Shown here in pieces: positions 2,405 to 57,610 of a DNA stretch of 57,610 nt. Location: positions 1-57,610 of IMG/VR virus record IMGVR_UViG_3300036832_001282. One strand, 5' to 3'. Position 1 is the first letter of the stretch. Each line of letters opens with the position of its first letter. The notes below the pieces were generated by a model. The model saw only the letters and a program-made list of their open reading frames with translations. It was not told the DNA's origin and did no database searches. The stretch comes from a virus (taxonomy: Duplodnaviria > Caudoviricetes). The position numbers were made by a program, and so were the translations under genes.

Positions 2405-3646
2405 TCACCCAGAGATCATAGAGTTTGAATTGCCGACGGTGTTCAGCGGCGGGGATAGGGCACCACTTGCCACGTTTACTCCGGGAATATTAACAGCGGA
2501 CCCTAAAGTAGCGTACACCGCAACCCCAGTGCCATTGTTCGCATAATAACCAGCGCCGCCAGCAGTCATCGCCGATCCGGCGGCCCATAATCCGTATTGT
2601 CCGTTGTTATAGCTTCTTAGAACAATGGCATGAGTAGAATAATAACTCTCAAATCCATTACGCGCATTGCCCTTGGCTGTTATATAACCATTCTTAATAG
2701 AAGTGCCGCATTGGCAGGTGAACCCGGAGCCATTGTTTGATGCGGCTATTGTGCCGTTCACAGTATTAGCAAGCACGTCACCCTGAAACTCATAGCCCCA
2801 AACACCAGTGCAACCGCTTACTGAAATCCACTGACCGTGCATCACCAAATACGCCTGATTGACCATGAGCCCAGCATTACCGCCGGTTCCATGGACGGCA
2901 ATATTACTGATAACCGGAAGTCCTGCGTTAAACAAAAGTAGCGGCCCCCAATCGTTGTCGTTAACAACTGAGCCGTCTCCGGTTATGAGAAGATTACTGA
3001 TACTAAAATCGTTGAGAACCACCATCGAGTGGCCATTGATGAAGTGCAATTCCGTGCCAAGGGTTGCCCGCAACATCGCTACGTGATTGTTGGCGTCCGC
3101 CAAATTGTAGCCGACGCCAGTGACCACAAAGCTTCCCTCGTTCGGAGCCGCTGCAATCAGCGGTGCGCCGGTAATGGCAATCTTGGATGAGTTGGGGTGC
3201 TCCAGAACCACGCTAGTGTTATAGACAAACTGCTGTGCCACACCGGAAGTCGCACCAGCAATCTGTAAAGTCACAAACCCGTTGCGGAGAATTTTGTACT
3301 TCGCAAGCCAGTTCATCGCCTCGTTAAGATCAGCAAACTTCGCGCCTGGACCATGCACCGTATACGTCACCGGATGATCGATGAAGTACTCAACATTAGT
3401 GATGAAACCCTCAATGGCCTTGCGCAGTTGCTGCAAGTCAGCATTGCTTGGCGCACCGCACGTCGCCCCGGAGAAGTCGAAGTATCCGCGCAGGTAGGCG
3501 CGATTGACGACCTCGACGATCTCGCGCTGGTCGAACTCGACTGCCCCGGCAGGGACGATGGAGCCTTCAATACCTGCGGCGGGAACGCCATCGATATAGG
3601 GCGCGTTCGGGTTGCTGGGCTGATCTGGCGGTCCGTTGTACAGCAT
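2405..3646 (-). CDS. Tail fibre/spike with beta-helix-like C-terminus
   Basis: N-terminal anchor GSIVPAGAVEFDQREIV...DLQQL as in fibres of Mu-like tails; C-terminal NNGxG repeats rich in N/G/A. Confidence 0.65.
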   Translation of the reverse strand: MLYNGPPDQPSNPNAPYIDGVPAAGIEGSIVPAGAVEFDQREIVEVVNRAYLRGYFDFSGATCGAPSNADLQQLRKAIEGFITNVEYFIDHPVTYTVHGPGAKFADLNEAMNWLAKYKILRNGFVTLQIAGATSGVAQQFVYNTSVVLEHPNSSKIAITGAPLIAAAPNEGSFVVTGVGYNLADANNHVAMLRATLGTELHFINGHSMVVLNDFSISNLLITGDGSVVNDNDWGPLLLFNAGLPVISNIAVHGTGGNAGLMVNQAYLVMHGQWISVSGCTGVWGYEFQGDVLANTVNGTIAASNNGSGFTCQCGTSIKNGYITAKGNARNGFESYYSTHAIVLRSYNNGQYGLWAAGSAMTAGGAGYYANNGTGVAVYATLGSAVNIPGVNVASGALSPPLNTVGNSNSMISG

Positions 3647-3659
3647 CGATTTATTCCCC

Positions 3660-4358
3660 TTACGAGATTGTCAGTTCGTCCCACTCGACGCCCATGGTGA
3701 ACTGCCACGGACCGCCAGCAGGCAGCGTCACTGTCACCACCAGACCTTCGTAGCGATCCAGCAATAACGAATGTTCACCCTGCAACCGCTCGAACAGGTT
3801 CATTCGCGACGAAGTAAACGGCTTAGCGGTGTCTGTCGGCGTGGCGAACACCTGACAATCCATCGGCGCGGCATCCAGGGTTCGCACACCGGGTGTCAGC
3901 GGTGCCGTGTTGGCGATCGTCATCATGGCGCGCGAGCCATGCATGCTGGTGCGCAACTGATTGTTCGGCGAGGTGAAGTTGGCTGAGATGCCGCCGCTGT
4001 CGAAGTTATTCCAGGCTCGTGCAGCGAACACCTTGAAGATAGCGACACCGCCGAGGAAGATGTTGTTGGCCCAGGCCGACATTCGAAGGCGGCGCACCGA
4101 GGCATAGTACGGGATCGGATCAGAAGTCCCCGGCCACATGAACGAGAAGATCGGCACATCGGTCAGCGCCGTCGAATTTGGCAGTATCCCGCTGGACGCG
4201 GTGAGCATGTACATGCCGCCACCGGCATATTCCAGCGGCAGCATCGACATCAGATGCATCGGCCGCTGCAAGGAGCCGTCGAGCGACGGCGACACGTCCT
4301 TCATGCGCACGTTGAACAGGTTGCCCAGCCCGTCTTTGATCTGTTTGTTGTCCATCAT
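3660..4358 (-). CDS. Hypothetical virion-associated protein
   Basis: 232 aa ORF with 4-nt overlap to the upstream gene, inside the tail cluster. Confidence 0.6.
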   Translation of the reverse strand: MMDNKQIKDGLGNLFNVRMKDVSPSLDGSLQRPMHLMSMLPLEYAGGGMYMLTASSGILPNSTALTDVPIFSFMWPGTSDPIPYYASVRRLRMSAWANNIFLGGVAIFKVFAARAWNNFDSGGISANFTSPNNQLRTSMHGSRAMMTIANTAPLTPGVRTLDAAPMDCQVFATPTDTAKPFTSSRMNLFERLQGEHSLLLDRYEGLVVTVTLPAGGPWQFTMGVEWDELTIS

Positions 4359-5509: not shown

Positions 5510-8463
5510 CGGCGGCGCTCCAGTGTCGCGATGCGCGCGTTCAGTTGCTTCACCGCATTGATGAGCGTGAAGATCAGCGACGTGGTGTCGAGGTCGCGAA
5601 TGTCGGTCACCGGCTCACCGTCGATGAAGCCCTTATGCTTGGTGACCATGTGGGGCAAAAGCGGCTCAACCTCCTGCGCAACGAGCCCAATAAATTCCTT
5701 GCCATCTTTCGCAGCTTGATAGTGGCCTGAGTTCTTATAGGGAACGACTGGTGTGTCTTTTGGCACTGGCTCGTCATAAATGGCATTGCTTGGCGGATCG
5801 GTGGTGTCGTTGCCCTTGAACGTGTACTTCACCGGCCGCAGTGCCAGGACTTCATCGAGCCCATGGGTGTATTCACCAATGACATTCTTGATGCGTTCGT
5901 CGGAGCTATCAGCCCAAGGGCCGCCGCCTGGCTTATAAGCCTGCCCACTAAATATTAAAACGCCATCACTGCGCCACATGGTGTTCGACGCATTTTGTAG
6001 TTGCATAGTATTATCGGCGGTTTGCACATACATAAGGCCTATGCGAGTGCCACTCGAATTGAGCCACTCGTAATGAACATTTCCTCCGGGTACTGCACCA
6101 TTATGAACCCATCCGCCGTTAATGACTACCTCGCTACCAAAGGTGGCTATAGAGGTAGCGCGAGTGATGGTCAGTGCGGTAGGAAGACCTCCACCAGTGT
6201 CATTACGAGGAGCGATAAGAAAGTTAGACCCGGCATTGGCTCCACTTTCGGCGGAACCGTCACCAAACACCATGATCCATCGTTCACTTCCGTTCGTCTT
6301 TCCGCTGAAGTTGTTGGAGTAACCAGACCCCGGTTTATCCAGCCATAATTCTGGGTGCCAAGCTGATGGTTTGATGCTGACACGGGTAGCAAGGGTGATC
6401 TGGCTATTAGGGACTACAGCGCGGTTGATCTGAATCGGAGTGTCGAGCCATGTCCCGTCATCGTTATATCTGGCGATACCAAAGTTAGACCCGGAGTTGC
6501 TTCCACTCTCAGTCGCGCTGTCGTTAACAACGACATTCCATCTGAGTAGACCGTTTTTGGTGCCAACAATATTTCCCTGCCCACCGCCATACGTGATAGC
6601 GGTAGCGCAGCCAGTGCCCCCACCACTCTGGACTACAAGCGAGCCCGTCATCGTGCCGCCGCTGATGGGTACAAATTGTGTTGGGTCATATGTTGGCACG
6701 TTGAGCGCCGACACCCATTGCGCTGAGTTGCCGTCGTTATAGCGCAGCCACAGATTACCGCTGTCGTTCTCCCACCAGAGACTTCCGTCTAATGCACTTG
6801 GTGGCGCGGTCGGGCTAACGATGACGCCAGCCCTGGCATCGACATACTGCTTGGGAGCGGCCTCAAGGTTTGCGGTTGGATTGCCTTGAAGTAACAGTTG
6901 CCCGGTCATCGTGTCACCGGCCTTCAGCACCCGCATATCGGAATACTGTTTGGTTGCTGCCTGCATCGGCTGGGTCGGATCGTTCGCCAGCACGATCGGG
7001 CCGGTCATGGTGCCGCCAGCAAGCGGCATGACTTTTTGCCATGCTGCGTTCACTCGCCCATAGGCAAACGAGTCGGACGGCGCGTCAATGATGCCGCCGC
7101 TGTGCCCATCGACGTATTGCTTCGTTGCCGCCTGCAACGGCTGCGTAGGGTCGGCTGCAAGCGTCAGCGCTCCGGTCATGGTATCGCCGGCCTTGACCAC
7201 TCGCAGATCGGCATATTGCTTGGTCGCAGCTTGAAGTGGCTGTGCCGGATCGGCAGCGAGAGTCAACGGCCCGGTCATGGCATCGCCAGCCTTGGCGATC
7301 TTGGCGTCGACTGTTTGTTTAGTTGCAGCTTCCAGCGGCTGCGTCGGATTAGCTGACAGCAGCAACGCGCCGGTCATCGTCCCGCCAGCAACTGGGAGAC
7401 CACGCTGCCAACTCGTATTCAATCGGCCATAGAGATAGCCATCGACCGGCGCTTCCGGCAGATTTCCTGGCGCATGCGCATCGACGTAAGCCTTGGTCGC
7501 AGCTTGCAACGGCTGCGTCGGATCACCTGACAGCACTAATGTGCCGGTCATCGTATCCCCGGCCTTGAGCACACGAGTGTCGGTGTATTGTTTAGTCGCC
7601 GCCTGCAACGGCTGGGTCGGATCGGCCTGCAGCGTTAACGCACCAGTCAGGTTGCCACCCGAGAGCGGCAGCACCCGCTGCCAGGACGAATTCAGGCGGC
7701 CGTAGCTGTACGAATCGATCGGCGCTTCAGGCAGATTTCCCGGCGCGTGGGCATCCACATACGCCTTGGTCGCAGCTTGCAATGGCGAGGTCGGATCGCC
7801 GGGAAGGATCAGCGCCCCGGTCATTGTATCGCCAGTCTTGGTCACCTTGCCGTCGACCATTTGCTTGGTCGCCGCCTGCAACGGCAACGTCGGATCACCG
7901 GGCAGCGTCAGCGCCCCCGACATGGTGTCGCCACTACGCAGCACACGAGCATCCACCATCTGCTTGGTTGCGGCTTGTAGCGGTTGCGTCGGGTCACCGG
8001 GTAAAGTCAATGCTCCGGTCATGGTGTCGCCAGTCAAGGCGACCTTGGCGTCCACCGTTCGCTTGGTGGCGGCTTGCAACGGCTGAGTCGGATCGGCCCA
8101 CAACGTCAGTGCACCCGTCATGGTCGCGCCAATCAACGGCACCACCTGATGCCACGCTGCATCGACGCGACCATAGGCTGAGCCGTCTACAGGGGCGTCA
8201 CCCAGGCCACCGGCCGGACCCTGCGGTCCCACCGGCCCTGGAACGCCTTGCGCCCCCGCAGGCCCCGTTTGCCCGGTACCTCCAGGCGGTCCCATCGGTC
8301 CTGCCGTGCCAGGAACACCCTGCGGCCCTACCGGCCCCTGCGGTCCTATCGGACCAGCCGGACCAACGGACGGAATCAACAACTCAACCGTTGGGTTGGC
8401 CGTATTGGAAGCCACCGTGATTCGTGGCGCTCCCAACGTTGTCGCGGTCACATGCTCGACCAT
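5506..8463 (-). CDS. Long tail fibre with collagen segment, internal repeats and C-terminal intramolecular chaperone (peptidase S74-like)
   Basis: Gly-X-Y run; 11 GxTMTGxLxLxxDPTxPLxAATKxxVD repeats; C-terminal SDERIKN...LRPVKY...IGLVAQEV...LINAVKQL. Confidence 0.85.
6840..8200 (-). repeat. Coding tandem repeats of the tail fibre (~33-aa units, boundaries approximate)
   Basis: 11 near-identical units interspersed with 4 (D/E)APxDxxxYGRxxxxW motifs. Confidence 0.85.
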
Positions 8464-29471: not shown

Positions 29472-31778
29472 CTACCACGTGATAGCGCTCGTTGTAGCAA
29501 CCATTCCAGACCGCCTAAATGACCAATTAAGAGGGAAGATCATTCGAAGCGCCAATGAATCCGTCTGGAACAGTGAGCGTTGTGGAGAAGCGACAGTACC
29601 GGGTGAGCCGCTGACAAGGTCGGCCGGTGACGTATCTTCCATATGGAGCGTGGCCTGATCAGAAATCTCGAACCGCATGGCGTCGGCCTGCATCACCACG
29701 AAGTCGGCGGCGTCCACCAGGATCACCGTCTTCGGCGGCACCGTCGCCGAGTCGATGATCGGAATGTTGTTCAGCGTGCCACGGCCGACTTCGTCCTTGA
29801 ACGGGAAGACGCCCGTGTTAGGAGCGCTGACCAACGATGCTGACAGCATGTCCGCCGGGTTCATCAACCAAGCCGGTGAGCGGATGTTGCCGTAGGTGGC
29901 AGTGACCAACGCACCGATCATGTTCTTGATGTCGCCAACCACCGCCGCAATGCCGCCACCCGCCGTTGCACCCACTGGCGTCACGCCATTGAGAATGCCA
30001 GCCGGACGAATGGTGGTCGCCGGATTGTTGTCGAGCAAAACCGAATCCAACGAGATCGCCGTATCCTCTTGGATCGCCTGCCGCAGCACGCCCTCGATCG
30101 CAGGAATGCTGTGATCCGCCATCTCACGCGTCCACGTCGTGATCACGGCCATCTTCTTCGGAATGAAGGTCTGGCTGGTGAACGCGCCCTGCCGGACCGG
30201 GATCGCCATGCCTTCACCAACGAACGATCCGGCAATCGTCGGCGTCCGCGACCGGGTCGGCAACAGGATTTTCCCGGCCTGCCCGAAACTAAGCGACGTA
30301 CCCTTGGCCGCCAGTCGCGGGAAGATGCTTTGCGGAAGCAGCAAAGCCATCATGTCGGCGTAGATTTGATGCACCAGTTCTTGTGCCCAACCCACCACCG
30401 TGGTCATGGCAGGCGCTGACGGTGCGCGCATCGTCCAGTCGAGCACCACCTTGTGCGCTTCGTCATCACCATAGATGCGAAGCCGTTCGACATCCGGCAG
30501 CGTGCCCCGGATTTTCGCCATGCCATGGCAAACACCAGCATGCACGAGATAATCGATCGGCTCCCAGTCCTTCTTCGAGTGTTTAACGATGATCGGCGCG
30601 CTGACACCCTCATTAGTTGGCGTACGATATGGCACCAGCGAACGACGAGTCGGGGCACCATTATCTTCACGAGCGGTCGCGGCCCCTCGCGTCTTTTCAT
30701 AATCGACCAATGCAACATACTGATTCTGCAGTTGCTTGATCTGCGCATTCAGCAGCGTCGACTTCTCCAAGTCAGCGTCGCTAACATTGGTGTCGTCCTG
30801 CTTGCTGAAATGCTCGTCCAGTTCTTCCAGCTTATTGGCGATCTGCTGTTGCAGATCAATAATACGTTGCGAAAGCGGAACCGTGCTCATGGCTCGGTCC
30901 TTCCCTTGACTACGAGACGTGTCGCCTTGCTTGGCAATGAAATCCCGCCGTACGATGCCGCCCTGATTGCCATGCTTGGCGAAGACGACATCCATCGTGG
31001 CCGGACTAACACCCAGCGATTTGGCAACCGCCAGGGCATTCGGGTTGGCTGGCACACTCACCAGCGACGTTTCGAGCAGTTCCTGTTTGAGATAGCGCTG
31101 ACCGGCAAAACCGCCGACGTTCAGACTTTTAAGCGGCACCGCCTCGATCGGATGAAAACCAACCGAGACCGTACGCAGGATTCCAGCATTGACCAGCTTG
31201 CGTATCTCGTCGATGCGATCGGATGTCCCTTCCGGCGCAAGCTCCAGATGCCCGCGCAACGCGCCTTTTTCCACGCGCAAATTGTGCCAGCGACCAATCG
31301 GAAAATCGCTCTTGTGATTGAACAACGCAATCGGATTGTTCTTGAACGACTCGATATCCCAACCGGCGCTGCTGATGACATCGCCCATGCGATCGACAGT
31401 CTCGTCGCTCAACACGAATTCCATACCGCTCACAGTCGCACTATGCGACTTGTGCAAGACCGATTTATGCACTGCCGCTACAGCGGCACGATTCTCCTGA
31501 TAATCGGTCCACATCACCTGACATTCGTCTTCGTCCAGATCATCGGTGCAGCGATCCATGAACTCTTCATAAGTCTCGTCGTCATCCGGCGGATCAACAT
31601 TGTCATCACCGTTGTCTTTTGCTTTTTTCGGCGGTTCGCCACCGTGCTCGGCGCGCCACATCGAAAGGCATGCCGCCACCGCCTGCTCTTGCGGCCGTTT
31701 GCCGTCGCCCATCATCTCGGGCACACACCTTGCGCTGAAATCACTTTGCGATTCACCCGGCTTTGGCTTCATCGGCAT
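29472..31778 (-). CDS. Fused HK97-type prohead protease + major capsid protein
   Basis: Protease: DRMGDVI...NPIALFNH...PIGRW...VSVGF...LLETSLVSVPANPNAL. A coiled coil follows, then capsid motifs FVGEG..IP, KKMAVIT and PAGILN. Confidence 0.92.
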   Translation of the reverse strand: MPMKPKPGESQSDFSARCVPEMMGDGKRPQEQAVAACLSMWRAEHGGEPPKKAKDNGDDNVDPPDDDETYEEFMDRCTDDLDEDECQVMWTDYQENRAAVAAVHKSVLHKSHSATVSGMEFVLSDETVDRMGDVISSAGWDIESFKNNPIALFNHKSDFPIGRWHNLRVEKGALRGHLELAPEGTSDRIDEIRKLVNAGILRTVSVGFHPIEAVPLKSLNVGGFAGQRYLKQELLETSLVSVPANPNALAVAKSLGVSPATMDVVFAKHGNQGGIVRRDFIAKQGDTSRSQGKDRAMSTVPLSQRIIDLQQQIANKLEELDEHFSKQDDTNVSDADLEKSTLLNAQIKQLQNQYVALVDYEKTRGAATAREDNGAPTRRSLVPYRTPTNEGVSAPIIVKHSKKDWEPIDYLVHAGVCHGMAKIRGTLPDVERLRIYGDDEAHKVVLDWTMRAPSAPAMTTVVGWAQELVHQIYADMMALLLPQSIFPRLAAKGTSLSFGQAGKILLPTRSRTPTIAGSFVGEGMAIPVRQGAFTSQTFIPKKMAVITTWTREMADHSIPAIEGVLRQAIQEDTAISLDSVLLDNNPATTIRPAGILNGVTPVGATAGGGIAAVVGDIKNMIGALVTATYGNIRSPAWLMNPADMLSASLVSAPNTGVFPFKDEVGRGTLNNIPIIDSATVPPKTVILVDAADFVVMQADAMRFEISDQATLHMEDTSPADLVSGSPGTVASPQRSLFQTDSLALRMIFPLNWSFRRSGMVATTSAITW

Positions 31779-36046: not shown

Positions 36047-37251
36047 CACAACTTCACTAGTGCGCTGGCCCAATCACCAAGATCGTCCTGCTTACAGACT
36101 TTTATGTTCTGATAAAACGGCGACAGCCAACGCCAACTGGACCAGTAGCTCAGCAACAACTTGATGTTCGGATGCCCGATCGCACCGGCAAGATGAATCG
36201 CAGCCGTGTCAATTGAAACTATCGTATCGCAACATTCCATCAGTGCTGCACAGTCGGCAAAATCTTCGAAGTCAAACTGTTCGATACCTGCATCGGCGCA
36301 ACGTTGCTGCACGCTGACCAGACGCACGCCGGGCAACGCTTCGACCAGCAGCGGCAGCGGCAGCGCTCGCGGATAATCACCGCTATGCGCCACGCGTGGC
36401 GACCACGCCACGCCAACAAGACGGCCATGCGTATTGCCAAGCGTGCGCCGCCATTTGTCGACCAAGATCGGATTGGTTTGCAAATACGAATCAAGCGGCA
36501 CCGTGTCTGGCTGCTGCCACAGCATCCGCAACAGAAACAATAGTGAACAGAAATAATCAGCAGGCACCGGCTCGTTCACGACTGGCGCAACTTGCTCGCC
36601 CAGACGTTTCAATTCCGGCGGCAACCATAGTATCACTTCAGCGCCCATCGACCTGAGCATGCCAACGTAACGCAGACACATGATCGAATCGCCGAAACCG
36701 TGATCGTGAATCAGCAAAAGACGCTTGTCATGAAGCGGCTCACCGCACCAGCGCCGCAGCCCGAATTCAACACACTCAAGATATTGCGGCCGGGTAAACA
36801 ACGAGCCGCTGGTCTCGATCGCCGTGGCATACAAATCAAAACCTTCGCGCCAATGACCCAATTCTAATAAACACATTCCAGAATTATATTTTGCAGCTAG
36901 TGTATCAGCATACGATGCTGCGGTTTGAAACGCTACCAGTGCATTCAGCAACTGATCACCGCTGCGCATAGCCTCGCGCCCAGCATCGAGAAAATGTACG
37001 TACTTGTCGATCACTCCGGGCGATGTCTGTTTCGGCACCGCACGATAACCGATATGTTGCCCGCCACGATGAATCGCGATCTTCGAGCCGAATGGAATCG
37101 TGGCAAGGTGCCCATTTGCTGTTCGGACTGACAACACTTCGCCGTCAGTAGTCAGCGCTCGCCAACCATCAACGGTTTCTTCGACCGCCAGAATTGGCAG
37201 TAGGTCTGGCGGATCAAAATTTGCGTAACTTTGTTTGCTTGCCATAGGCAT
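36046..37251 (-). CDS. TPR-like + glycosyltransferase (GT9/GT-B-like) protein
   Basis: LLELGHWREGFDLY, WCGEPLHDKRLLLIHDHGFGDSIMCLRY, DFADCAALMECCDTIVSIDTAAIHLAGAIG, WRW. Confidence 0.8.
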   Translation of the reverse strand: MPMASKQSYANFDPPDLLPILAVEETVDGWRALTTDGEVLSVRTANGHLATIPFGSKIAIHRGGQHIGYRAVPKQTSPGVIDKYVHFLDAGREAMRSGDQLLNALVAFQTAASYADTLAAKYNSGMCLLELGHWREGFDLYATAIETSGSLFTRPQYLECVEFGLRRWCGEPLHDKRLLLIHDHGFGDSIMCLRYVGMLRSMGAEVILWLPPELKRLGEQVAPVVNEPVPADYFCSLLFLLRMLWQQPDTVPLDSYLQTNPILVDKWRRTLGNTHGRLVGVAWSPRVAHSGDYPRALPLPLLVEALPGVRLVSVQQRCADAGIEQFDFEDFADCAALMECCDTIVSIDTAAIHLAGAIGHPNIKLLLSYWSSWRWLSPFYQNIKVCKQDDLGDWASALVKL

Positions 37252-37263
37252 TTTAATCTGCTA

Positions 37264-37397
37264 GGTCATGATTTCTTAGGCACGGTGCATTACGGTCTAA
37301 TCGGCACTGCTGGGTAAGGCGTGTTAATGCAGGCGCAGTATGGTGCGGCACAGAATGGTCGGCTTATCCCGTAACGGCGAGGCTTGACAAGGCAGGC
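37264..37397 (+). ncRNA. Two-unit GGY-NN pentamer mini-array (putative guide RNA)
   Basis: GGC AC GGT GC ATT AC GGT CT ... GGT AA GGC GT GTT AA TGCAGGC GC AGT AT GGT GC GGC AC ... GGC GA GGC TT GAC AA GGCAGGC; same grammar as 55518-57610. Confidence 0.6.
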
Positions 37398-37401
37398 TAA
37401 A

Positions 37402-37433
37402 GAAAACGGTCATTCTCACGAGTGACCGTTTTC
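37402..37433. terminator. Bidirectional intrinsic terminator
   Basis: GAAAACGGTCATTC-TCAC-GAGTGACCGTTTTC with T-tracts on both strands; the G-U pair works on the plus strand. Confidence 0.75.
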
Positions 37434-37445
37434 ACTTTTATAGAA

Positions 37446-38525
37446 TCACTTCCAATTTGGCGTAAGCCAACTAATACCTCTTGGATCACGTAGTGCCCAC
37501 GACACTGGCCATCGAATTTTCAACGCCAGCGAATCAGTTTGATACATCGATTTTCGCGGTCCAGCTGTCGGCACTGCTGATGGCACAGAATCCATATGCA
37601 GCGCTGCAGCAGTTGCAACTTCGACATGCGGAGCAGGATCAAGCGCGGCCACTAATGCAGCAGGTGCAATTGCGAGCATATCGCCGCCAATCGAATTTGT
37701 TCCAAGCACAACAACATTGCTGGCTTCGAAAATGAACCGCAACGCCATTGAAACAGCACGACCGGGTGAGACAACAATTAGATACGGTCCATTTTGACCA
37801 ACTGATGAAACAGCGTTAATCAACGATGTTAAATCTTCAGCAAATGCTTCAACGGAGTCAGCATTATTACTTGCTGTCAACGCAGCGATGCCGTTACGCA
37901 AACCAGCTGGTCGCGCCGCTGTTGCCGGATTGACATCGAATAACGTGTCATCGAGCGCACAACCAGCAGAACGCATCAAGGCATCGCCGATCAGCTGCTC
38001 GGCATTACTGGATTCAATCATTTCACGTGTTAGCACCGCAATTGATGCAAGCTTGAACGGCGTCAACAACGCTGGTGTTGCTGATAATTGGCGAACTGGA
38101 ATTGGATCACCTTCAGCAACAAATCCTGAATTAGCTCCTGATGCACTGAATCCTGGTGCACTGATTGAAGCACGGCCAGCAAAATCAAGTAACAATGAAC
38201 GTTTGAATACCTCGGCCGCCGCTGTCGCCGGGCCAAGACCAGCCAGCATGTCATTGACAGTTCGTTGCGCTAATTCTGCAGCCCAAGTAGATACCGTCGT
38301 CATTGCAGGCGCAGAAGCAGCGCGCTCGATCACTTCCAACGTGAGCTTGTCGCTTGGCCACATCAACGCTGCCGCTTCTTGCGGAGACATCTTGCGTACA
38401 ATGCCGACTGCTTTCGCTGTCAGCGCCCGCACGAAAGTGTTGCCTTGCGGCAGCGGCAGCGGGTTGCGCTTGAAAGCGCGACCTGAAAAAGCAGATGTCC
38501 CGATGTATTCCATCGCCTGTGCCAT
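37446..38525 (-). CDS. Second major-capsid-like protein (paralog of the capsid part of 29472-31778)
   Basis: RAASAPAMTTVSTWAAEL vs RAPSAPAMTTVVGWAQEL; FVAEGDPIPVRQ vs FVGEGMAIPVRQ; SMYQTDSLAL vs SLFQTDSLAL. Confidence 0.85.
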   Translation of the reverse strand: MAQAMEYIGTSAFSGRAFKRNPLPLPQGNTFVRALTAKAVGIVRKMSPQEAAALMWPSDKLTLEVIERAASAPAMTTVSTWAAELAQRTVNDMLAGLGPATAAAEVFKRSLLLDFAGRASISAPGFSASGANSGFVAEGDPIPVRQLSATPALLTPFKLASIAVLTREMIESSNAEQLIGDALMRSAGCALDDTLFDVNPATAARPAGLRNGIAALTASNNADSVEAFAEDLTSLINAVSSVGQNGPYLIVVSPGRAVSMALRFIFEASNVVVLGTNSIGGDMLAIAPAALVAALDPAPHVEVATAAALHMDSVPSAVPTAGPRKSMYQTDSLALKIRWPVSWALRDPRGISWLTPNWK

Positions 38526-42527: not shown

Positions 42528-43031
42528 CTACCTCGCTTCCACGTCAGAACTGGCCAGCAGCACTGGCACTTCGCGACCCAGCAACGCCAGCAAAACCCGC
42601 GATCTCTCAGCACCGGACAGCCCATCGTAAACCCCAAGCTTGCCCGCGAACGAACCACGCTTGATGCGCACCGGATCACCTTTCAGCAAGCCTCTCGGCT
42701 TCGGAAGTTGCACCAGACCATCATCGTCCTCGCGCTTGCGAATCGCATCCATGATCTTGTTCGCCACCTGCACTGGCTTGCCATCCGACATCAACAAGCG
42801 CACCACGCCAACGCTCCAACGCACCTCCCACCAGCGATCCATGATTTCAACAAACACATAGCCGGGAAACAGCGGCACGATCTTTTTCAACCTGCCTTGC
42901 TTGATCAGGATTTTTGGTAAGTAGGTTTTGAAGCGCGCTTGTTCGAGGAAGCGCGCAGCGACTCTTTCGCGCTGCGATTCAGTTTGCACGACTGACCAAA
43001 ACGACTTGGCTGATTGTCGCAACGATGCCAT
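42528..43031 (-). CDS. NusG/RfaH-family transcription antiterminator
   Basis: WSVVQT...E..AARFL, PLFPGYVFV, VGVVRLL (NGN domain); GDPVRIKRGSFAG..G...VLLALLGR (KOW domain). Confidence 0.9.
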   Translation of the reverse strand: MASLRQSAKSFWSVVQTESQRERVAARFLEQARFKTYLPKILIKQGRLKKIVPLFPGYVFVEIMDRWWEVRWSVGVVRLLMSDGKPVQVANKIMDAIRKREDDDGLVQLPKPRGLLKGDPVRIKRGSFAGKLGVYDGLSGAERSRVLLALLGREVPVLLASSDVEAR

Positions 43032-43681
43032 TGCTGTTCTTTCGCAGTCGCCCATCGACAGTTCTTAGGCTCATAATCTCCATTATTGTCAGGATAACGA
43101 TCAATGGAATGTTGCGGCGAAGGCTTCAATCCCATATCAACCAAAAAATTCTCGAAGCTGTCATTCCAACGCTTACATACTTTCACACCACGACCACCAT
43201 AATTAGAAAACTTATTTGTGCCAGGAACATTACAACGAGCCCTCATACCAAGCCACGAAGAATATTCAGAAGAAATACCAGAATCTCTAGCATGCCCATG
43301 CTTCGCGCGTTTCACAGATAATTCTTTATTCAAACAACCACATGATCCCGTATGCCCACTAGTTAAACTACCAGTACTAACTATCAAACTATTTCCACAA
43401 TCACATCTACACTTCCAACACGCTGCCTCATGCTTATCATTCTTAACACGTCGTAACACAATCAAACGCTTAAATTTTTGTCCTAACAAACTAGATGCTT
43501 TCAAACACTTTCCACAAGATTTACTTTTTCCACTGCGTAAATTCCCGCGACTAACTACTGCATCATTTCCGCAATCACAACGACACAACCAATACGCCAT
43601 TCCAGAATTTGAACTACCTTTTCGACTCAACACAAACAATCGACCAAAATGCTGTCCACACAAATCAATCAACTTGCTCAT
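42905..43681 (-). CDS. Putative homing endonuclease (CxCDCG repeats + HNH-like C-terminus)
   Basis: Two GQ.F.RL.VL...W.CRCDCGN repeats, YGGRG..VC.RW, SIDRYPDNNGDYEPKNCRWAT; noticeably AT-richer than neighbours. Confidence 0.8.
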   Translation of the reverse strand: MSKLIDLCGQHFGRLFVLSRKGSSNSGMAYWLCRCDCGNDAVVSRGNLRSGKSKSCGKCLKASSLLGQKFKRLIVLRRVKNDKHEAACWKCRCDCGNSLIVSTGSLTSGHTGSCGCLNKELSVKRAKHGHARDSGISSEYSSWLGMRARCNVPGTNKFSNYGGRGVKVCKRWNDSFENFLVDMGLKPSPQHSIDRYPDNNGDYEPKNCRWATAKEQQWHRCDNQPSRFGQSCKLNRSAKESLRASSNKRASKPTYQKS

Positions 43682-45185: not shown

Positions 45186-45858
45186 CGTAGCGGCCTTTGA
45201 TCCCCGCAATCTGCCCTCGCGTCAAACCAAATCTATCCCGAATCTCCACCGGAGCGAAACCCCGCTGCAGCATTTCATGTATCTGCCCAAGCATCTCAAC
45301 AGTGACTTTGACATTGACCAAATGCGAACTGATTTTTGACGTAACCCACTGCAGTTTGCCAGACCCGTCAATCAGCCAATCGCGCTTAATCCGCAAATGC
45401 GTATGCCGCTGCGTCCGCATGGTGTACTCGCTATAACCAAGCTGTTCACCGATTGCTTTCGGACTCAGACCCTCGTTGCATAAAACACGAATTCGTTCTT
45501 GATCAGCTAAATCAACTTTCTGCCGTGGCCCTTTACGTTTAGGTCCACGCTTATGCGTATGCTTATTTCGAAACTGTTGCGCCATATATTCCTGACGCAG
45601 TCTCAACAGCAACGCATTATCAGAAAAATCAGTAAAATCATAAACCGATTTATCAGGAATCTTCAGCGGATTGATCTTGTAGGTTTCCATCAGTCGCCTT
45701 GCGGCGGCTTCCGCAGCTTCGGCCTCACCGAGAGTCGAAGCTGCAGTTGCACGCCGCAAGCACTTCTGAAAACGTCGCAGATTCTCGAAAGTTTCGTTTT
45801 TAGTCGAGAACATGATTCTCATCAGCAGCTTGGCCGTTACCGGACGCAGTCGCCGCAT
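45094..45858 (-). CDS. Hypothetical protein (DUF2786-like N-terminus, HTH-like C-terminal parts); start uncertain
   Basis: KCLRRA...GEAEAAEAAARRLMETYKI; GLSPKAIGEQLGYSE. Confidence 0.55.
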   Translation of the reverse strand: MRRLRPVTAKLLMRIMFSTKNETFENLRRFQKCLRRATAASTLGEAEAAEAAARRLMETYKINPLKIPDKSVYDFTDFSDNALLLRLRQEYMAQQFRNKHTHKRGPKRKGPRQKVDLADQERIRVLCNEGLSPKAIGEQLGYSEYTMRTQRHTHLRIKRDWLIDGSGKLQWVTSKISSHLVNVKVTVEMLGQIHEMLQRGFAPVEIRDRFGLTRGQIAGIKGRYDEQIRSGANGDAATSGVVAGHADSGSGGET

Positions 45859-46366
45859 TGTCCGAGATTAACAGCTTGTGCTGAATGTCTTCCATGATCT
45901 CACCGATCACTGATCGCGGTTTCTGCCCGCGACTCTTCCACGTCGCCATCAGCGACAACGCTGTGTTCCCGGCATCCTCGCCAGCTTCGACGATCTTACT
46001 GCCGGTGATAACCGCAAGTTGACCACGCAACTGCGCCGCCGCGTTGATAACTTTACGAGCTTTAGTCTCTTCACTCACTTCGGCAGAACGCTTTGGTCGC
46101 GGCGGCCTGATCAACTTCTTGACCAGACTATTGATCACAAGATCAACGTAATTCGAACTACGAGCGCGCTTCAACCAACCCAAGAACACACCGTTGATCT
46201 GATCCTGGGTCAACTGAGCAATAACACACTTCCCCGAACACTCCGCAACCCAAGTGTCAACCAAAGTCTTGACGACTAGGCCATCTTTGCCGATCAGATT
46301 TTTAGGGGGTGCTGGAAGCGACTTCAACACTTCATCCGGTGAACTAACAGAAGCTTCGGCAGTCAT
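45800..46366 (-). CDS. Hypothetical protein
   Basis: 188 aa with GGAGG RBS. Confidence 0.7.
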   Translation of the reverse strand: MTAEASVSSPDEVLKSLPAPPKNLIGKDGLVVKTLVDTWVAECSGKCVIAQLTQDQINGVFLGWLKRARSSNYVDLVINSLVKKLIRPPRPKRSAEVSEETKARKVINAAAQLRGQLAVITGSKIVEAGEDAGNTALSLMATWKSRGQKPRSVIGEIMEDIQHKLLISDNAATASGNGQAADENHVLD

Positions 46367-51836: not shown

Positions 51837-54053
51837 ATGCAGCGTCGTGCCGAAACTGGTGCCACCTTCGCGCATGACGCCATTGGATTCTTGGATTTCG
51901 AAACTGTCAGCCGCACGCAGGAACTCAAAGCGGCTGGCACCTATCGCTATGCGGTCGAGGCCGACGCTATCATTGCCGCGTTCGCCATCGGCAACGCCCC
52001 GACGCGAACGATCGCGGTGACGGACTTTCCGGCTTCATTGCGCTGGTCCGACATGCCGGAAGATTTCCGCGCTCATCATCTCAGGGTGCAACGCGGTGAA
52101 GCGGTGTGGGCGGCCTGGAATGCCGGATTCGACAAGGCGATCTGGAATTACTGCACCGACTTTCCGCCGCTTGAGCCAGAGCACATCATCGACGTGATGG
52201 CGCAGGCTGCGGCCAGCGGCTTGGCACCTGATCTAAAACATGCAGCAAAACAGTGTGGAGCCGTAGCTAAACTTGAAACCGGCAGCGATCTGATAAAATT
52301 GTTTTGCATTCCGCTTGAACTTCGCAAGAGTGATATTCGCAAGCGCTATGGCGATGCCATAGCAACGCCGTTAACGCATCCTAACGAGTGGGCGCAATTC
52401 GTTGTCTATGCTGCCGCCGATATCGAGGCTATGCGCGGCGTGTTCATGCGCACCCGGCAATTGCCATGGCAGGAGTGGCAGCACTACTGGGCGAGCGAAC
52501 ACATCAACGAACGCGGTGCCACTATCGATCTTAAAATGGTCGCGCACGCCGCCAAGCTGGCGGAAGAGGACAAGTATCGATCCAAGAAAGAATTGCCATA
52601 TCTTACTGCAGGCGCGGTCAAGACCGTGGATCAAGTCAAGTGCATGACCGAGTGGCTGCTAAAACATCTGCCGGTAAACGGCCGTGATATTTTGATCAAA
52701 CGCGTACCTGAGATTGATGAAGAAACTGGTGTTGAGACGCGTCCGGCTAAAATGAGCCTGACGCGTAGACAAGTCGAGAAATTGATTGTGCTATTGCAGG
52801 CGCAACCAAATTTAGCGTCGGCGGAAGTGTTGCGTGTGCTGCAGCTGCGGTTGTACGGCGGAAGTAAAACTCCTGCTAAATTCAATCGTGTGCTTTGGCA
52901 ACACGTCGATGGCGTATTGTACGGTCAGTATGTTTTCAACGGCGCAGCGCATACCGGGCGCTATTCTTCGAAAGGCACACAAATTCACAACTTAGCTCGT
53001 GACGTGTTGGACAACGAGCCCGATCTGATCGACGCCGTGCTGAACGAATGCGATTATGATACGTTGCAACAACTCGGCACTAACGATCCGGTTGCGCGCA
53101 AGCTGGCATTGCTGATTCGCCCGATATTCGTTCCGCAACCAGATCATGTATTTGTTTGGAGCGACTGGTCGCAGATTGAAGCTCGCGTGCTGCCGTGGCT
53201 GGCTGGTGACGATACTCGCGCCATGGCGCGACTGGAGATTTTCAGCGATGTCGATAACGATCCGAGTTTGCCTGATCTTTACACTAGAACCGCCAGCGAC
53301 ATTTCCGGTTTGCCAATAGAACAAGTAACAAAACCAATTCGTCAGCGCGGTAAGGTTGCCGAATTGGCCTTGGGTTTTGGCGGCGGTGTCAATGCGCTAC
53401 TAAACATGGGCGTTAACTATGGCTTGCACCTAGAACCTGAAGAAGCCAAGCTGATCGTAGCGCGCTGGCGTGAGGCCAACCGATGGGCGGCCGACTTTTC
53501 CAGTGCGTTGTGGAACGCCATGCGCGAGGCGCATCGTTTTCAAAAGCAGTTTGTTCCTGCCGGTCGCGTTGGTTTTATCTTTCTCGGAGATTATCTTGGC
53601 GGCTCGATGTTGATGCGATTGCCGTCAGGGCGGCTGCTGACATACCGGGGCTTACGCTGGGAACAACTCGACGTGCTTGATGACGACGACCAGCCAACTG
53701 GCGAAAAAACTCTGGAGTTGACCTATGGACGTGGCCACGCCCGTGTCAAATTATGGGCCGGAATTTTAGTTGAAAATGCCACTCAAGCCTGCGCAGCAGA
53801 TTTTTTGCGCGGCACTTTGGTGCGGCTGATCGAGCATAAGTTCGATGTGCGCCTGCACACGCACGACGAGATCGTGTTGGAAGCTCGCGCGGCCGACGCC
53901 CGACAAGTCGCCGCCAAATTGCGCGCGATCATGCAACAGGGTTTTGACTGGTCGGAAGGTTTGCCACTGATGAGCGAGGAGACCATCGCCTACGGCTACA
54001 CCAAGCACGCTGGCAGTTACTGGCAAGAAGAATTAGTTGGTTCAGTCGGATGA
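51837..54053 (+). CDS. Phage DNA polymerase, family A
   Basis: Exo DFET, AWNAGFD, YAAADI; TGRYSS...Q.HNL; motif A DWSQIEARV; motif B RQRGKVAELALGFG; motif C HTHDEIV. Confidence 0.95.
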   Translation: MQRRAETGATFAHDAIGFLDFETVSRTQELKAAGTYRYAVEADAIIAAFAIGNAPTRTIAVTDFPASLRWSDMPEDFRAHHLRVQRGEAVWAAWNAGFDKAIWNYCTDFPPLEPEHIIDVMAQAAASGLAPDLKHAAKQCGAVAKLETGSDLIKLFCIPLELRKSDIRKRYGDAIATPLTHPNEWAQFVVYAAADIEAMRGVFMRTRQLPWQEWQHYWASEHINERGATIDLKMVAHAAKLAEEDKYRSKKELPYLTAGAVKTVDQVKCMTEWLLKHLPVNGRDILIKRVPEIDEETGVETRPAKMSLTRRQVEKLIVLLQAQPNLASAEVLRVLQLRLYGGSKTPAKFNRVLWQHVDGVLYGQYVFNGAAHTGRYSSKGTQIHNLARDVLDNEPDLIDAVLNECDYDTLQQLGTNDPVARKLALLIRPIFVPQPDHVFVWSDWSQIEARVLPWLAGDDTRAMARLEIFSDVDNDPSLPDLYTRTASDISGLPIEQVTKPIRQRGKVAELALGFGGGVNALLNMGVNYGLHLEPEEAKLIVARWREANRWAADFSSALWNAMREAHRFQKQFVPAGRVGFIFLGDYLGGSMLMRLPSGRLLTYRGLRWEQLDVLDDDDQPTGEKTLELTYGRGHARVKLWAGILVENATQACAADFLRGTLVRLIEHKFDVRLHTHDEIVLEARAADARQVAAKLRAIMQQGFDWSEGLPLMSEETIAYGYTKHAGSYWQEELVGSVG

Positions 54054-55447
54054 GACAAAAATCTGAGCTTCGTTCCGGCCAGCAGCATATCATCGACGCG
54101 TTGTACCAGAACAACGAGATGATCTGCGCCTTGCGCCCAGGCGGCGGCAAGACCATCGCCGCCTTGACCGCCATCGAGGAGCTTATCTGCCACGGTGAGA
54201 TCAGGCACGCTCTGGTGACCGCGCCGAAACGCGTGGCCAGGATCGTGTGGCCGGATGAATTGGAGACCTGGGAGAACACGAGCCGCTTGCGCTGCGCCGT
54301 GCTCAGCGCCGGTCCGGCCGAACGCAGCGTGCTGCTGCACGACGCGCCAAACCGCGATCTGACCATCTTCGGCCATGACATCATCGAGTGGCTCATCATG
54401 CAGATCGACAAACTGCCGTCCGATCATCCGTTGTTCGATTTGCTGGTGATCGATGAAATTTCCCGGTTTCGCAATCCGCGAGGCAAGCGCTACAAATTAT
54501 TATGCAAGCATATTCACCGCTGGCGCATGGTGTGGGGCTTGTCCGGCACCTTGCGGCCGTCGAGCGCCATGGATTTGTTCGGCCCGGTGCGCTTGGTATC
54601 ACGCGGCAAGCTCTGGGGCAGGAGCTTCTATCAATGGCAGAAGGAAAGATTTTTCCCAACTGATTACAACGGTTATAACTGGGAGCCGAAACCGGGCGCG
54701 GAAGATCGTATCAATGCCGAAATCGTCCCGTGGCTGGTCACCGCCGAGATACCGCAACTACCCGAACCGACGATCGTGCTTGACCGGCTCGAACTGCCGG
54801 AAGCAGCACGGCGCGAGTATAACCGGATGGAGCGCCGGTTGATTGCCGATATAGGCCAGAACGAGACCGTGATTGCCGACAGTCGCGCCATCGCGATCGG
54901 CAAACTGAGCCAGATGAGCAACGGTTTTATTTATTCTAGTGATAATTCAAAAACCGTACACGCGCTGCACGACGCCAAGCGTGATTGGCTGCGTGACCTG
55001 ATCGAGACTTCAACGTCACCGATGCTGCTGATCTACGAATTTCGTGAAGACCTGTCGATGCTGCGTGAGTTGCTTGGCGACAGCCTGCCGTATCTCGGCG
55101 CTGGTGTTTCCGACAAGCGCGCCGAACAGCACGTCAAGCGCTGGAACGAAGGCCGCCTGCCGTTCATGGCCTTGCACCCTGCCAGCGCCGCCCACGGCTT
55201 GAATCTGCAGCATGGCGGCGCGGACATGACATGGATCGCACCGACGTGGAATTCTGAATTATGGGAGCAAACTATTGCGCGGCTGCACCGCTCCGGTCAG
55301 ACTCGGCAAGTGGTGATTCGCGTCGGCATCGCCATCGGCACCATCGATGAAATGAAGCTCGATCGTGTGCATCTGAAGCTGTCGGCACAACAAAGCTTCG
55401 AGCGCTACGTCAGTCATCGTACTTTGAATCTGGCATCTGTAGACTGA
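54050..55447 (+). CDS. SNF2-family helicase
   Basis: PGGGKT, LVIDEIS, GLSGT, HPASAAHGLNLQ, QTIARLHRSGQ. Confidence 0.93.
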   Translation: MRQKSELRSGQQHIIDALYQNNEMICALRPGGGKTIAALTAIEELICHGEIRHALVTAPKRVARIVWPDELETWENTSRLRCAVLSAGPAERSVLLHDAPNRDLTIFGHDIIEWLIMQIDKLPSDHPLFDLLVIDEISRFRNPRGKRYKLLCKHIHRWRMVWGLSGTLRPSSAMDLFGPVRLVSRGKLWGRSFYQWQKERFFPTDYNGYNWEPKPGAEDRINAEIVPWLVTAEIPQLPEPTIVLDRLELPEAARREYNRMERRLIADIGQNETVIADSRAIAIGKLSQMSNGFIYSSDNSKTVHALHDAKRDWLRDLIETSTSPMLLIYEFREDLSMLRELLGDSLPYLGAGVSDKRAEQHVKRWNEGRLPFMALHPASAAHGLNLQHGGADMTWIAPTWNSELWEQTIARLHRSGQTRQVVIRVGIAIGTIDEMKLDRVHLKLSAQQSFERYVSHRTLNLASVD

Positions 55448-55479
55448 AAGGATCGTCAGTCGCGACACACCTCTGAAGT

Positions 55480-55512
55480 AAAAATGCCCGCACCTTGCGA
55501 TGCGAGCATTTT
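55480..55512 (-). terminator. Intrinsic terminator closing the array transcript
   Basis: Minus strand AAAATGCTCGCATC-GCAA-GGTGCGGGCATTTTT: GNRA loop, and two G-U pairs valid only on the minus strand. May also stop the convergent helicase transcript. Confidence 0.8.
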
Positions 55513-55517
55513 CATTT

Positions 55518-57610
55518 ACCTGCCTTGCGAGGCTGAACCGCTCCGTTCCTTGCCCGTCCGTCCGTGCCTATCCGGTCCCCGCCTGCCGTGCTTAACCGCG
55601 CCGATCACGACCGGAATCACACCGCGCCATAATCAGCCACGTCGTATCATGCCTGCCGGATACCGCCATACACCGCCGCTTCCCGCCATTCGCACCTTTC
55701 AGGCCGAAACGAACCGTGCCTGCGTCACCGTGCCCGTCCGCTCCTGTCCCAGCCGCTCCAATGACCGCCGTGCCTGCTTTGCCGTGCCTAGCCAATCCTA
55801 GCCTGATCGATCCGAAACGAACCGTGCCTGCATTGCCAATCCGGGGCCGTCCTATCCTACCACTCCAGGCCGGTTCCCGCCTCGCCTGCACTGCCATGTC
55901 ATACCGCGCCGATCACGACCGGGAAGCGCCTATCCATTCCGCACCTGCCAATCCTAGCCGTGCCTACTCGCACCCAATCGTTTACGAGCCACGCCTGCCA
56001 GTCCGTACTCTGCCGAACCCATCTGCAACGAACCATAACCCGCCAAACAAACCATGTCCGAACGAGCCTGAACGATCCGTGCCTGCCGGTCCTTGCCAGA
56101 TCGCAACTGAACGAACACCGACGAGCCCCACCGCTCGCACCGCGCCATGTCCGCGCCTGCCACACCACGCCCAGCCATGCCTGTCCGTGCCGGTCCCAAT
56201 TTAGCCAATTGCGCCATGCCTGCGCTGCCGCGCCAACCATGCCGGTCTAGGCCCTGCCGCGCCATTCCCATGCTTCCGCTGCCGTCCGCGCCCTGCCGCG
56301 TCGCTCCACGTCCCGCCGATTCCGTTTCTGCCGTACCTGCTTCGCCTTGCCTTGCCTGCTTTGCTTAGCCCTTCCGTGCCTAGGCTATCCTAGACCACAT
56401 GCGCCGATCCCTACTGTCCGTGCCTGCTTTGCTCATCCGCAACGAGCCTAACTAGACCTGTCACAGCCACATCCTTCCGCACCCGTCCGTGCCTGCCAGT
56501 CCACGCCATGCTGCTCCGCGCCCTGCCCGCGTTCCGCCGTGCCTATCCTTGCCTGTCGTCCACGCCCAGCCCTTCCATGTCTATCCAATCATGTCACGCC
56601 GCGCCTGCCTTGCCGATCCGAATCGCTTTGGGATGCGCCGGACCAAATCACACCATCCATGCCTGCCGAACACCGCCCAACACTGCCCAGTTCTTCCCTT
56701 GCCATTCCAATGACAGCCGCGCCTGCTTTGCCGTGCCAAACCTAGCCGAGACGAAATCAGGCCGACCGCTCCCGTCCACGCACGGCCTTACCCTGCCGCG
56801 CCTGCTTACCCCGTGAAGTAACAAATCGTGCCTGCATTACTTCGCCAAGCCGATCCTGATCATGCCACTCCGGTCTGCGCGATCCGCGCCTTGCCTGCTT
56901 CGCCGATCCTTGCCGGTTCGTGCCAGTCCTAACCGATCCGCGCCTGCCGTGCCCTTCCTTGCCTAATCGCTCCGTATTCTGCCAATGCAACCGGGTAAAC
57001 ACCGCAACCCGCCTGCCGTGTCTAGCTGAGCCCTGCCCAATCGATCCTTTCCTTTCCATTCCGCGCCTGCTTCGCCGATCCGGTCCACGCCTTGCTCAGC
57101 CCGTCCGTCCATTCCATGCCTGCTTCGCCTTATTGTGCCGGTCCCCGTCGAGCCGTGCCTTTCCTTACCGTGCCGCACCTATTCGCAGCCGCTTCACGCC
57201 TGCCTTGCCACGCCCTGCCCGTCCTTATCGGTCCAATCCTTGCCTGCTTCACCTTGCCTTGCCTGCCATCCTTGCACCGCCGCGCCGCTCCTTAACTGTA
57301 CGCGCCTGCTAATGCCTTGCCGACCCCTGCTCTGCCACAACGATCACTAATGTGCCGTGCCTGCATTGCCTTGCAATGCCGTTCGCGCCGGTCCGCGTCT
57401 TTCACCACCTCGCCTGCACGGCCATGCACGGCCATGTCTCGTCACGCCGGTCCGCGTCTTTCACCACCTCGCCTGCACGGCCATGCACTGCCATGCACTG
57501 ACGAACCGGAGCGGGCCGGACCATTTCGGCCGGACCATGCCTAGCCTGCTTCGCCTTTCCACGCCTAAACTGTCCGAATCGAATTGAACCGTTTCAGCCA
57601 ATCCTCGCCT
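55518..57610 (-). repeat. Non-coding GGY-NN pentamer array punctuated by GCAGGC (putative guide-RNA array), truncated at window end
   Basis: 34 exact RCCTGC copies on the plus strand from 55518 to 57544, plus variants; the intervening sequence has 5-nt periodicity; no credible ORF. Confidence 0.85.

Follow-up and report, generated by a model that had tools for sequence, protein, structure and literature searches.

A very long array of probable VIPR-type guide RNAs at the end of a tailed soil phage contig

According to the accessible part of its description, the VIPR system comprises a minimal RAMP protein, Vipr, and guide RNAs (vrRNAs) of 9 to 16 YNNGG repeats that pair with 1-nt skips, and seven types are distinguished (10.64898/2026.04.26.720920). 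Besides vrRNAs that carry tails, the same text describes “staggered arrays,” in which neighboring vrRNAs overlap by 1 nt (10.64898/2026.04.26.720920). In the structure of Vipr, as reported in the accessible part of a second preprint, one protomer is bound per repeat, with the GGY triplet buried and the NN dinucleotide presented (10.64898/2026.04.26.720927). Here we analyzed a window of 57,610 nt, which is the whole of the viral record IMGVR_UViG_3300036832_001282 (Caudoviricetes). At one end of this window, the minus strand carries a long series of GG-containing pentamers punctuated by the hexamer GCAGGY. An earlier note on this DNA, made from the sequence alone, had described the series as a candidate guide-RNA system that might belong to the VIPR class; an oligomeric protein was proposed to bind the fixed triplets, with the variable dinucleotides serving as a discontinuous code, plausibly against rival phages. 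Our analysis indicates that the stretch very probably belongs to a very long VIPR vrRNA array of a tailed soil phage, of which it forms the promoter-distal part.

The pentamer array and its units

The features at this end of the window are the following.

55518..57610, minus strand: probable VIPR-type vrRNA array with 34 GCAGGY delimiters, 33 complete units, and one unit cut at the contig end
57383..57495, minus strand: duplicated adjacent units; a 54-nt segment (57383-57436 versus 57442-57495) at 96% identity
55479..55514, minus strand: intrinsic terminator hairpin, a 16-bp stem plus a U run, directly past the last delimiter (GCAGGT, 55518-55523)

For the minus strand of 55518-57610, autocorrelation gave identities of 0.415 at lag 5 (0.290 in 200 shuffles; z 12.6) and 0.402 at lag 10 (z 12.2); lags 2 and 7 are depleted. 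The autocorrelation check that the earlier note had proposed thus agrees with the minus-strand period of 5 described there. Across 55501-57600, each of the 20 sliding windows of 200 nt passes the period-5 threshold, which only two windows pass elsewhere in the 57.6 kb (8201-8400, within a collagen-like coding repeat, and 37201-37400). Inside the region, the minus strand has 17 runs of at least four NNNGG units; the rest of that strand has 4, and the plus strand has none. Between 55518 and 57549, 34 minus-strand copies of GCAGGY are present, exactly at the plus-strand starts listed in the earlier note, whose example (55831 to 55772) also reads as it was written. Over the whole window and both strands, the hexamer is found 142 times against an expectation of 76.7 ± 8.0, a count reached in 0 of 100 shuffles. 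Within the array, 155 GG-N3-GG pairs are present, compared with 64.4 ± 8.4 in shuffles. When the sequence is anchored on these pairs, the base following GG is C in 83 cases, A in 53, T in 14, and G in 5 (0.51 bit), and the two positions past it carry 0.09 and 0.11 bit; the dinucleotide positions are therefore essentially free. The G-rich minus strand (876 G and 449 C of 2,093 nt) is the sense strand.

The 33 complete units are 19 to 117 nt long (median, 59) and follow each other head to tail; neither a spacer nor a ribozyme nor a structured tail separates them. Each unit consists of about 8 to 15 pentamers, in which GG and one further base (C > A > T) are followed by the free dinucleotide. The consensus at unit boundaries is GGC-RAR/GCAGGC-RY-GG, where the slash marks the boundary. 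In the pentamer reading, the delimiter (GG-C-A-GG-C) is a pentamer shortened to four bases; a single base stands in place of its dinucleotide, which moves the register by -1. The spacing of the units is 5k-1 in 13 of the 33, 5k-2 in 11, 5k in 6, and 5k+2 in 3, and 1-nt register slips occur in many units. Two mini-units of 19 nt are located at 57266 and 56359. The two longest units contain the degenerate delimiters ACAGGC and GCAGGG, so that the true number of units is probably higher. The units differ from each other, as had been claimed before, and show only partial duplications, the best of which is the pair at 96% listed above; this pair is a recent internal duplication. The array region extends over at least 2.09 kb and is cut by the contig end; because it runs off the contig at 57610, the lengths and counts given in the earlier note (2.1 kb and 34 delimiters) are lower bounds.

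At the other end, the array is closed by the terminator hairpin, which has a minimum free energy of -29.4 kcal/mol (z -5.3) and is folded as well by 0 of 200 shuffles. Terminator-like sites exist at 55479..55514 on both strands, and the hairpin can also terminate the convergent plus-strand helicase gene described below.

Contigs of the Logan collection from three soil-metagenome runs contain the stretch, with no RNA run among those listed for it, and in a second, independent soil study the array is near-identical, with 1 substitution. Contigs of two soil runs break within the duplicated pair (ends at 57415 and 57459), and one contig of run X2 extends 46 nt beyond 57610. A contig of run X3 that joins 55898 to 57195, skipping 1,296 nt of the array, is too weak to be used (low depth, a single contig, and a 20-nt side); the junction could be an array-length variant or a repeat artifact. 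A 35-nt stretch from the window end had no match in IMG/VR or in JGI metagenome contigs.

Several open reading frames (ORFs) of 100 to 162 aa, the longest of 162 aa, lie in the region on both strands and could speak for a low-complexity protein-coding gene, but the period is 5 and not 3, a period-3 signal is absent from the array region, and Pfam gave no match for any of the 8 ORFs that reach 100 aa. No credible ORF was found in the region; a conserved translated ORF was among the findings that, according to the earlier note, could overturn its reading. The layout is likewise not that of a degenerate CRISPR array. Direct repeats of 25 to 40 nt alternating with unique spacers were not detected in it, the repeat families being pentamer-phase similarities of 60 to 80%, and the only constant element is 6 nt long and recurs in a pattern of period 5; the non-CRISPR layout noted earlier is therefore upheld. 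No Rfam family reaches its gathering score in the region, where two Thr_leader matches at the terminator score 21.5 and 20.5 bits against a threshold of 55 (E values, 0.49 and 0.83), and RNA folding of the array is no more structured than that of shuffles (z -1.4). With this evidence on either side, we regard both a coding gene and a degenerate CRISPR array as extremely improbable.

Related arrays and their Vipr proteins

Relatives were retrieved by scanning IMG/VR for three GCAGGCNNGG motifs placed 35 to 65 nt apart. At least 122 phage loci were obtained, and in about 100 of them the match coincides with a period-5 region that is 300 bp or longer. Flanking ORFs were clustered for 63 loci, from which two consisting of short tandem repeats (L021 and L033) were then dropped, leaving 61. 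The dominant ORF family in the flanks of the 63 clustered loci is about 220 aa long. Its hidden Markov model (HMM) matches at 56 of the 61 loci, always on the strand of the array among the matches listed; the gene lies upstream of the array in 49 of these loci, downstream in 6, and between arrays in 1. A 40-sequence profile of the family matches the PDB entry 36pp_D, “SUSP1 Vipr protein,” with an E value of 2.2e-19 (positions 24-208 versus 3-189 of 202). The AlphaFold2 model of the family (predicted local distance difference test score, 88.8) matches Csm3/Cas7 chains, with 55 PDB matches at an E value of ≤1e-3. The family, which corresponds to phrog_4652, consists of Vipr homologues, with a Csm3/Cas7 fold as predicted by the model.

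Because the protein beside the same kind of array matches the solved Vipr in profile and Csm3/Cas7 in predicted fold, we take the window stretch to be a VIPR vrRNA array. The membership in the VIPR class that had been proposed in the earlier note now rests on data, since GCAGGC arrays stand beside Vipr homologues in 56 of the 61 related loci. The candidate guide-RNA system of the earlier note is accordingly supported as to the type of array; it is not of a new kind, because VIPR has already been published.

The same loci bear on an explanation by which the stretch would be a G-rich pentamer satellite acting as DNA, through G-quadruplexes or as recombination or packaging signals, and unrelated to VIPR. 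GG every 5 nt on one strand would make weak two-tetrad G-quadruplexes possible, but identical punctuation and unit size recur beside Vipr homologues in 56 of 61 loci, the NN positions differ in all units, and a terminator follows on the G-rich strand. A satellite is thus highly improbable.

Among described architectures, the staggered arrays are closest. In both cases, GGY/NN guides are arranged head to tail, each vrRNA ends where its successor begins, and the arrays are phage borne, as far as the accessible text of the preprint describes them (10.64898/2026.04.26.720920). An overlap of neighboring vrRNAs by 1 nt predicts a spacing of 5k-1, which is what we found in 394 of 467 units of the relatives; the overlap given in the legend of the preprint's fig. 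S18 corresponds to this spacing and to that of 13 of the 33 window units. In the relatives, a delimiter stands on either end of each array, as one also does at the end of the window array. The lack of a tail and the head-to-tail units fit the published staggered architecture.

The type II system of phage SUSP1 shares with the window array an identical pentamer code, and it too has more than one vrRNA locus per phage (see below for a second candidate locus in the window); in addition, SUSP1 Vipr (PDB 36pp) is a homologue of the Vipr family found beside the related arrays (E value, 2e-19). In contrast to the window array, SUSP1 has a pseudoknot tail of about 40 nt after 9 to 16 YNNGG repeats, and it has four vrRNAs, compared with dozens of units here. 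An invariable 3' pseudoknot tail of this kind was not found in the array, where the only constant element between units is GCAGGY with weak flanks. The Cas7 filaments of class 1 CRISPR systems are a more distant likeness, in that a RAMP-protein filament forms on a guide RNA and many guides stem from one processed array. The window array differs from them by the lack of a repeat-spacer layout, by a discontinuous guide (2 of every 5 nt), and by the lack of cas genes and of any sign of acquisition machinery.

Of the named phages, Cyanophage Cy-LDV1 (L126; BK059895.1) carries two arrays, at 3098-3322 and 3904-4077, that are unannotated and have 5 and 4 delimiters. These arrays flank g33 and lie downstream of g34, a Vipr homologue annotated as hypothetical. 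They resemble the window array in their GCAGGC delimiters (spacings of 44, 39, 49, and 49 and of 54, 59, and 19) located on the strand of the Vipr homologue, which is 53% identical to that of L014, and in having a mini-unit of 19 nt, as the window array does at 57266 and 56359. They differ in that there are only 5 plus 4 delimiters with a regular 5k-1 spacing, in that vipr is present, and in the host element, which is a temperate cyanophage whose locus is annotated as hypothetical only.

Of the 63 clustered loci (L021 and L033 included), 32 have a conserved second family, phrog_15946 (about 150 aa), next to vipr or the array (for example, at L006:9431-9934 and L019:4047-4502, and at 30 other loci). 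This family has the motif F.WDD..AA...R..QA..LIR and no Pfam family, and it probably represents an accessory (vap) gene of the GCAGGC-array subtype. In five other loci (L009, L023, L045, L048, and L076), GCAGGC-type pentamer arrays have no Vipr match in up to 10 kb of flank; these are possible orphan arrays of the subtype. A search for closer relatives of the window array with two GGCGAAGCAGGC motifs gave 11 IMG/VR loci, none of which has pentamer periodicity or Vipr.

Degeneracy of the array, location of vipr, and targets

The window array has 34 delimiters over at least 2.03 kb and is the longest among the matches listed, which have at most 19 delimiters at loci with flanks and 26 at one short locus. 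Compared with the staggered-type arrays of its relatives, it is far longer among the matches listed and more slipped, its GGA triplets are frequent, and its contig lacks vipr.

Several observations weigh against reading the stretch as a VIPR array. (i) The in-phase fixed triplet is GGY in 63% and GGA in 34%. Thus, of the three low-entropy and two high-entropy positions that had been predicted for each pentamer, the two free positions stand (0.09 and 0.11 bit), and the third fixed base is looser than expected. A at this position (34%) compares with 7% in the pooled relatives and at most 30% in any one of them, and a pyrimidine (63%) compares with a minimum of 68%; the pocket of the solved SUSP1 Vipr is said to exclude purines in the accessible part of its description (10.64898/2026.04.26.720927). 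(ii) The spacing of 5k-1 in 13 of 33 units contrasts with that in 394 of 467 units of the relatives (Fisher test, P = 3e-8), and the periodicity measures of the window array lie in the lowest eighth of the family. Only 18 in-phase guide tracts of at least 7 pentamers (7 to 15) could be parsed. (iii) No promoter-like site was detected within the array, the 5' end of which lies beyond 57610. (iv) The likeness to staggered arrays is drawn from descriptions in the preprint's text and legend, with neither the published delimiter nor the type (I to VII) matched, and small-RNA sequencing, according to the accessible part of that preprint, confirmed only the ribozyme and single-vrRNA architectures and not the staggered one (10.64898/2026.04.26.720920). 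(v) Neither Vipr (48-sequence HMM, profile A1, and phrog_4652) nor the accessory family (its own HMM and phrog_15946) has a match on the contig at an E value of ≤10.

The phage record, of linear class, is 57,610 bp long, has no terminal overlap, and is estimated by CheckV to be 85% complete. The contig breaks off within the array, at the flank that carries vipr in 49 of 56 relatives. Because it is both incomplete and cut on this upstream side, vipr and the accessory genes are probably located immediately upstream of the array, in the roughly 15% of the genome that is missing. On the downstream side, the array is adjoined by the helicase gene, so that no vipr lies downstream of it. Two ORFs on the contig were considered as vipr and rejected: that at 570-1313 encodes a Pro/Gly-rich repeat protein with a poor Atlas model and without RAMP features, and that at 45800-46366 has no family match. 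A related locus considered as a guide to synteny (L061; TerL identity, 59%) was also set aside, since its VIPR locus sits upstream of the packaging genes and is therefore uninformative on the missing end of the window contig.

A further candidate locus and two neighbors of interest are located elsewhere on the contig.

37262..37397, plus strand: candidate mini-locus with two vrRNA-like units (GCAGGC at 37329 and 37392); intergenic, with minus-strand genes on both sides
37402..37443, plus strand: terminator closing the mini-locus, a 14-bp stem plus a T run
54050..55447, plus strand: SNF2-type DNA helicase gene (PF00176; phrog_62, E value of 3e-98), convergent with the array

In the candidate mini-locus, the two GCAGGC motifs are 63 nt apart, 18 kb from the main array and on the opposite strand. 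Its period-5 score is 0.30, and its density of GG-N3-GG is 2.9 per 100 nt, compared with a plus-strand background of 0.24; the signal is weaker than that of the main array. Its end, in which CAAGGCAGGC and TAAAGAAAA precede the hairpin, mirrors that of the main array, where CAAGGCAGGT and AAATGAAAA precede the hairpin.

The absence of a Vipr match could also mean that the phage has no vipr and that the array is an orphan using the protein of another element, which we consider unlikely. The guides would then be decaying leftovers, or they would be loaded on the Vipr of a prophage or rival phage, as redirected guides or as a sponge. In line with such an orphan, no vipr or vap is present on the 57.6 kb, the array stands at the degenerate end of its family in spacing and triplet composition, and a Vipr match is likewise missing at 5 of 61 related arrays, of which 4 are flanked on each side by 1.5 kb or more. 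Phages that lack vipr and carry solo vrRNAs have moreover been published, and the window contig as it stands resembles these solo or orphan vrRNAs in having no vipr in the same element, as far as they are described in the accessible part of that preprint (10.64898/2026.10.15.759431). On the other hand, the contig has a completeness of only 85% and breaks off precisely at the place that vipr occupies in 49 of 56 relatives, so that the apparent lack of vipr may be an artifact of an incomplete contig, and the published solo loci, in the same accessible part, consist of 1 or 2 vrRNAs of the SUSP1 type with tails, whereas the window has at least 33 tail-less units (10.64898/2026.10.15.759431). That the array is mere junk is unlikely, because only 1 substitution separates two soil studies, the terminator is strong, and a second, terminator-bounded mini-locus exists. 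All in all, an orphan array thus appears improbable to us.

A more specific form of this idea is that the phage truly lacks vipr and that its guides, at least 33 orphan units plus the two-unit mini-locus, reprogram or soak up the Vipr filaments of resident prophages or rival phages. We regard it as quite improbable. If true, it would be an RNA-only counterweapon on a scale far beyond the 1 or 2 solo vrRNAs published, and adjustment to a foreign Vipr or a role as decoys, instead of decay, would account for the many GGA triplets and register slips.

Under the VIPR reading, with vipr probably just off the contig, the free dinucleotides would specify targets. Gapped target matches, which the earlier note had anticipated, did not emerge: for the 18 guides, with 0 to 3 skips, none exceeded shuffled controls in the phage's own genome and the 122 loci (2.5 million positions). 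These guides show no excess of the 1-nt-skip (NNx) rule over other skip rules, no self-target stands out, and none of them is shared with other arrays among the 122 loci. A 14-of-14 match of a guide with 7 NN pairs in L043 was rejected as a target because it does not extend and lies in GC-rich sequence. Six scans with the exact NNx patterns of five guides gave 0 matches in each of four scans of IMG/VR, 1 in metagenomes, and 2 in prokaryote genomes. The three matches, which fall in the MreC gene of an AT-rich organism, in a palindrome of a cyanobacterial metagenome-assembled genome, and in a Bryobacteraceae ORF out of wobble phase, were rejected as targets; we judge them to be chance matches and not phage-like.

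Phage genes, proposed mode of action, and implications

The contig carries the gene set of a contractile-tailed phage (TerL, portal, protease-capsid fusion, sheath, tube, Mu-like baseplate, and fibers) together with genes for a primase, a DUF2800 nuclease, PolA, and an SNF2 helicase. The helicase gene is a neighbor of the array and stands outside the VIPR system. No close relatives were found for the helicase in IMG/VR or for TerL in prokaryote genomes. The protease-capsid fusion (29472-31778, minus strand) is a 768-aa protein that joins a prohead protease (S78) to a major capsid domain, and a separate 359-aa protein (37446-38525, minus strand) also matches major-head PHROGs. Among the early genes, a NusG-like protein is encoded at 42528-43055 on the minus strand (PF02357; E value, 3e-14), adjoined by HNH and methyltransferase genes. 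At the start of the contig, a truncated peptidoglycan-binding (endolysin-like) gene (3-506), the C terminus of which is off the contig, adjoins the ORF at 570-1313 (minus strand). The latter encodes 247 aa, in which a PPGIWGGGNQPFPTPP-like repeat recurs about five times, and has no family match.

On the basis of published VIPR work and the related loci, the array may act as follows. A long precursor would start upstream of the contig end and would be divided at the delimiters into vrRNAs of 45 to 80 nt. Vipr, the small Cas7-like RAMP protein, would polymerize on each vrRNA with one protomer per pentamer, burying GGY and presenting NN. The NN pairs would base pair with double-stranded DNA, every third target base being skipped, and the bound filament may silence genes of competing phages, satellites, or prophages. 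We propose in addition that the 4-nt step at the delimiter would break the register of the filament and could in this way define RNA ends with neither a tail nor a ribozyme.

The array type is already published, and no new kind of system is revealed here; what sets this array apart is its size, its degeneracy, its use of GGA, and the missing protein gene. The description of VIPR dates only from 2026, and staggered arrays were not verified by RNA sequencing, according to the accessible part of the preprint (10.64898/2026.04.26.720920). With at least 33 guides in one putative transcription unit, compared with four in the model phage, the window array is an extreme case. The GCAGGC signature retrieves more than 100 further phage loci with Vipr and accessory genes. 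The 4-nt step, which breaks the 5-nt register, suggests that units may be delimited without a tail or a ribozyme, and the abundant GGA triplets would probe the limits of Vipr binding.

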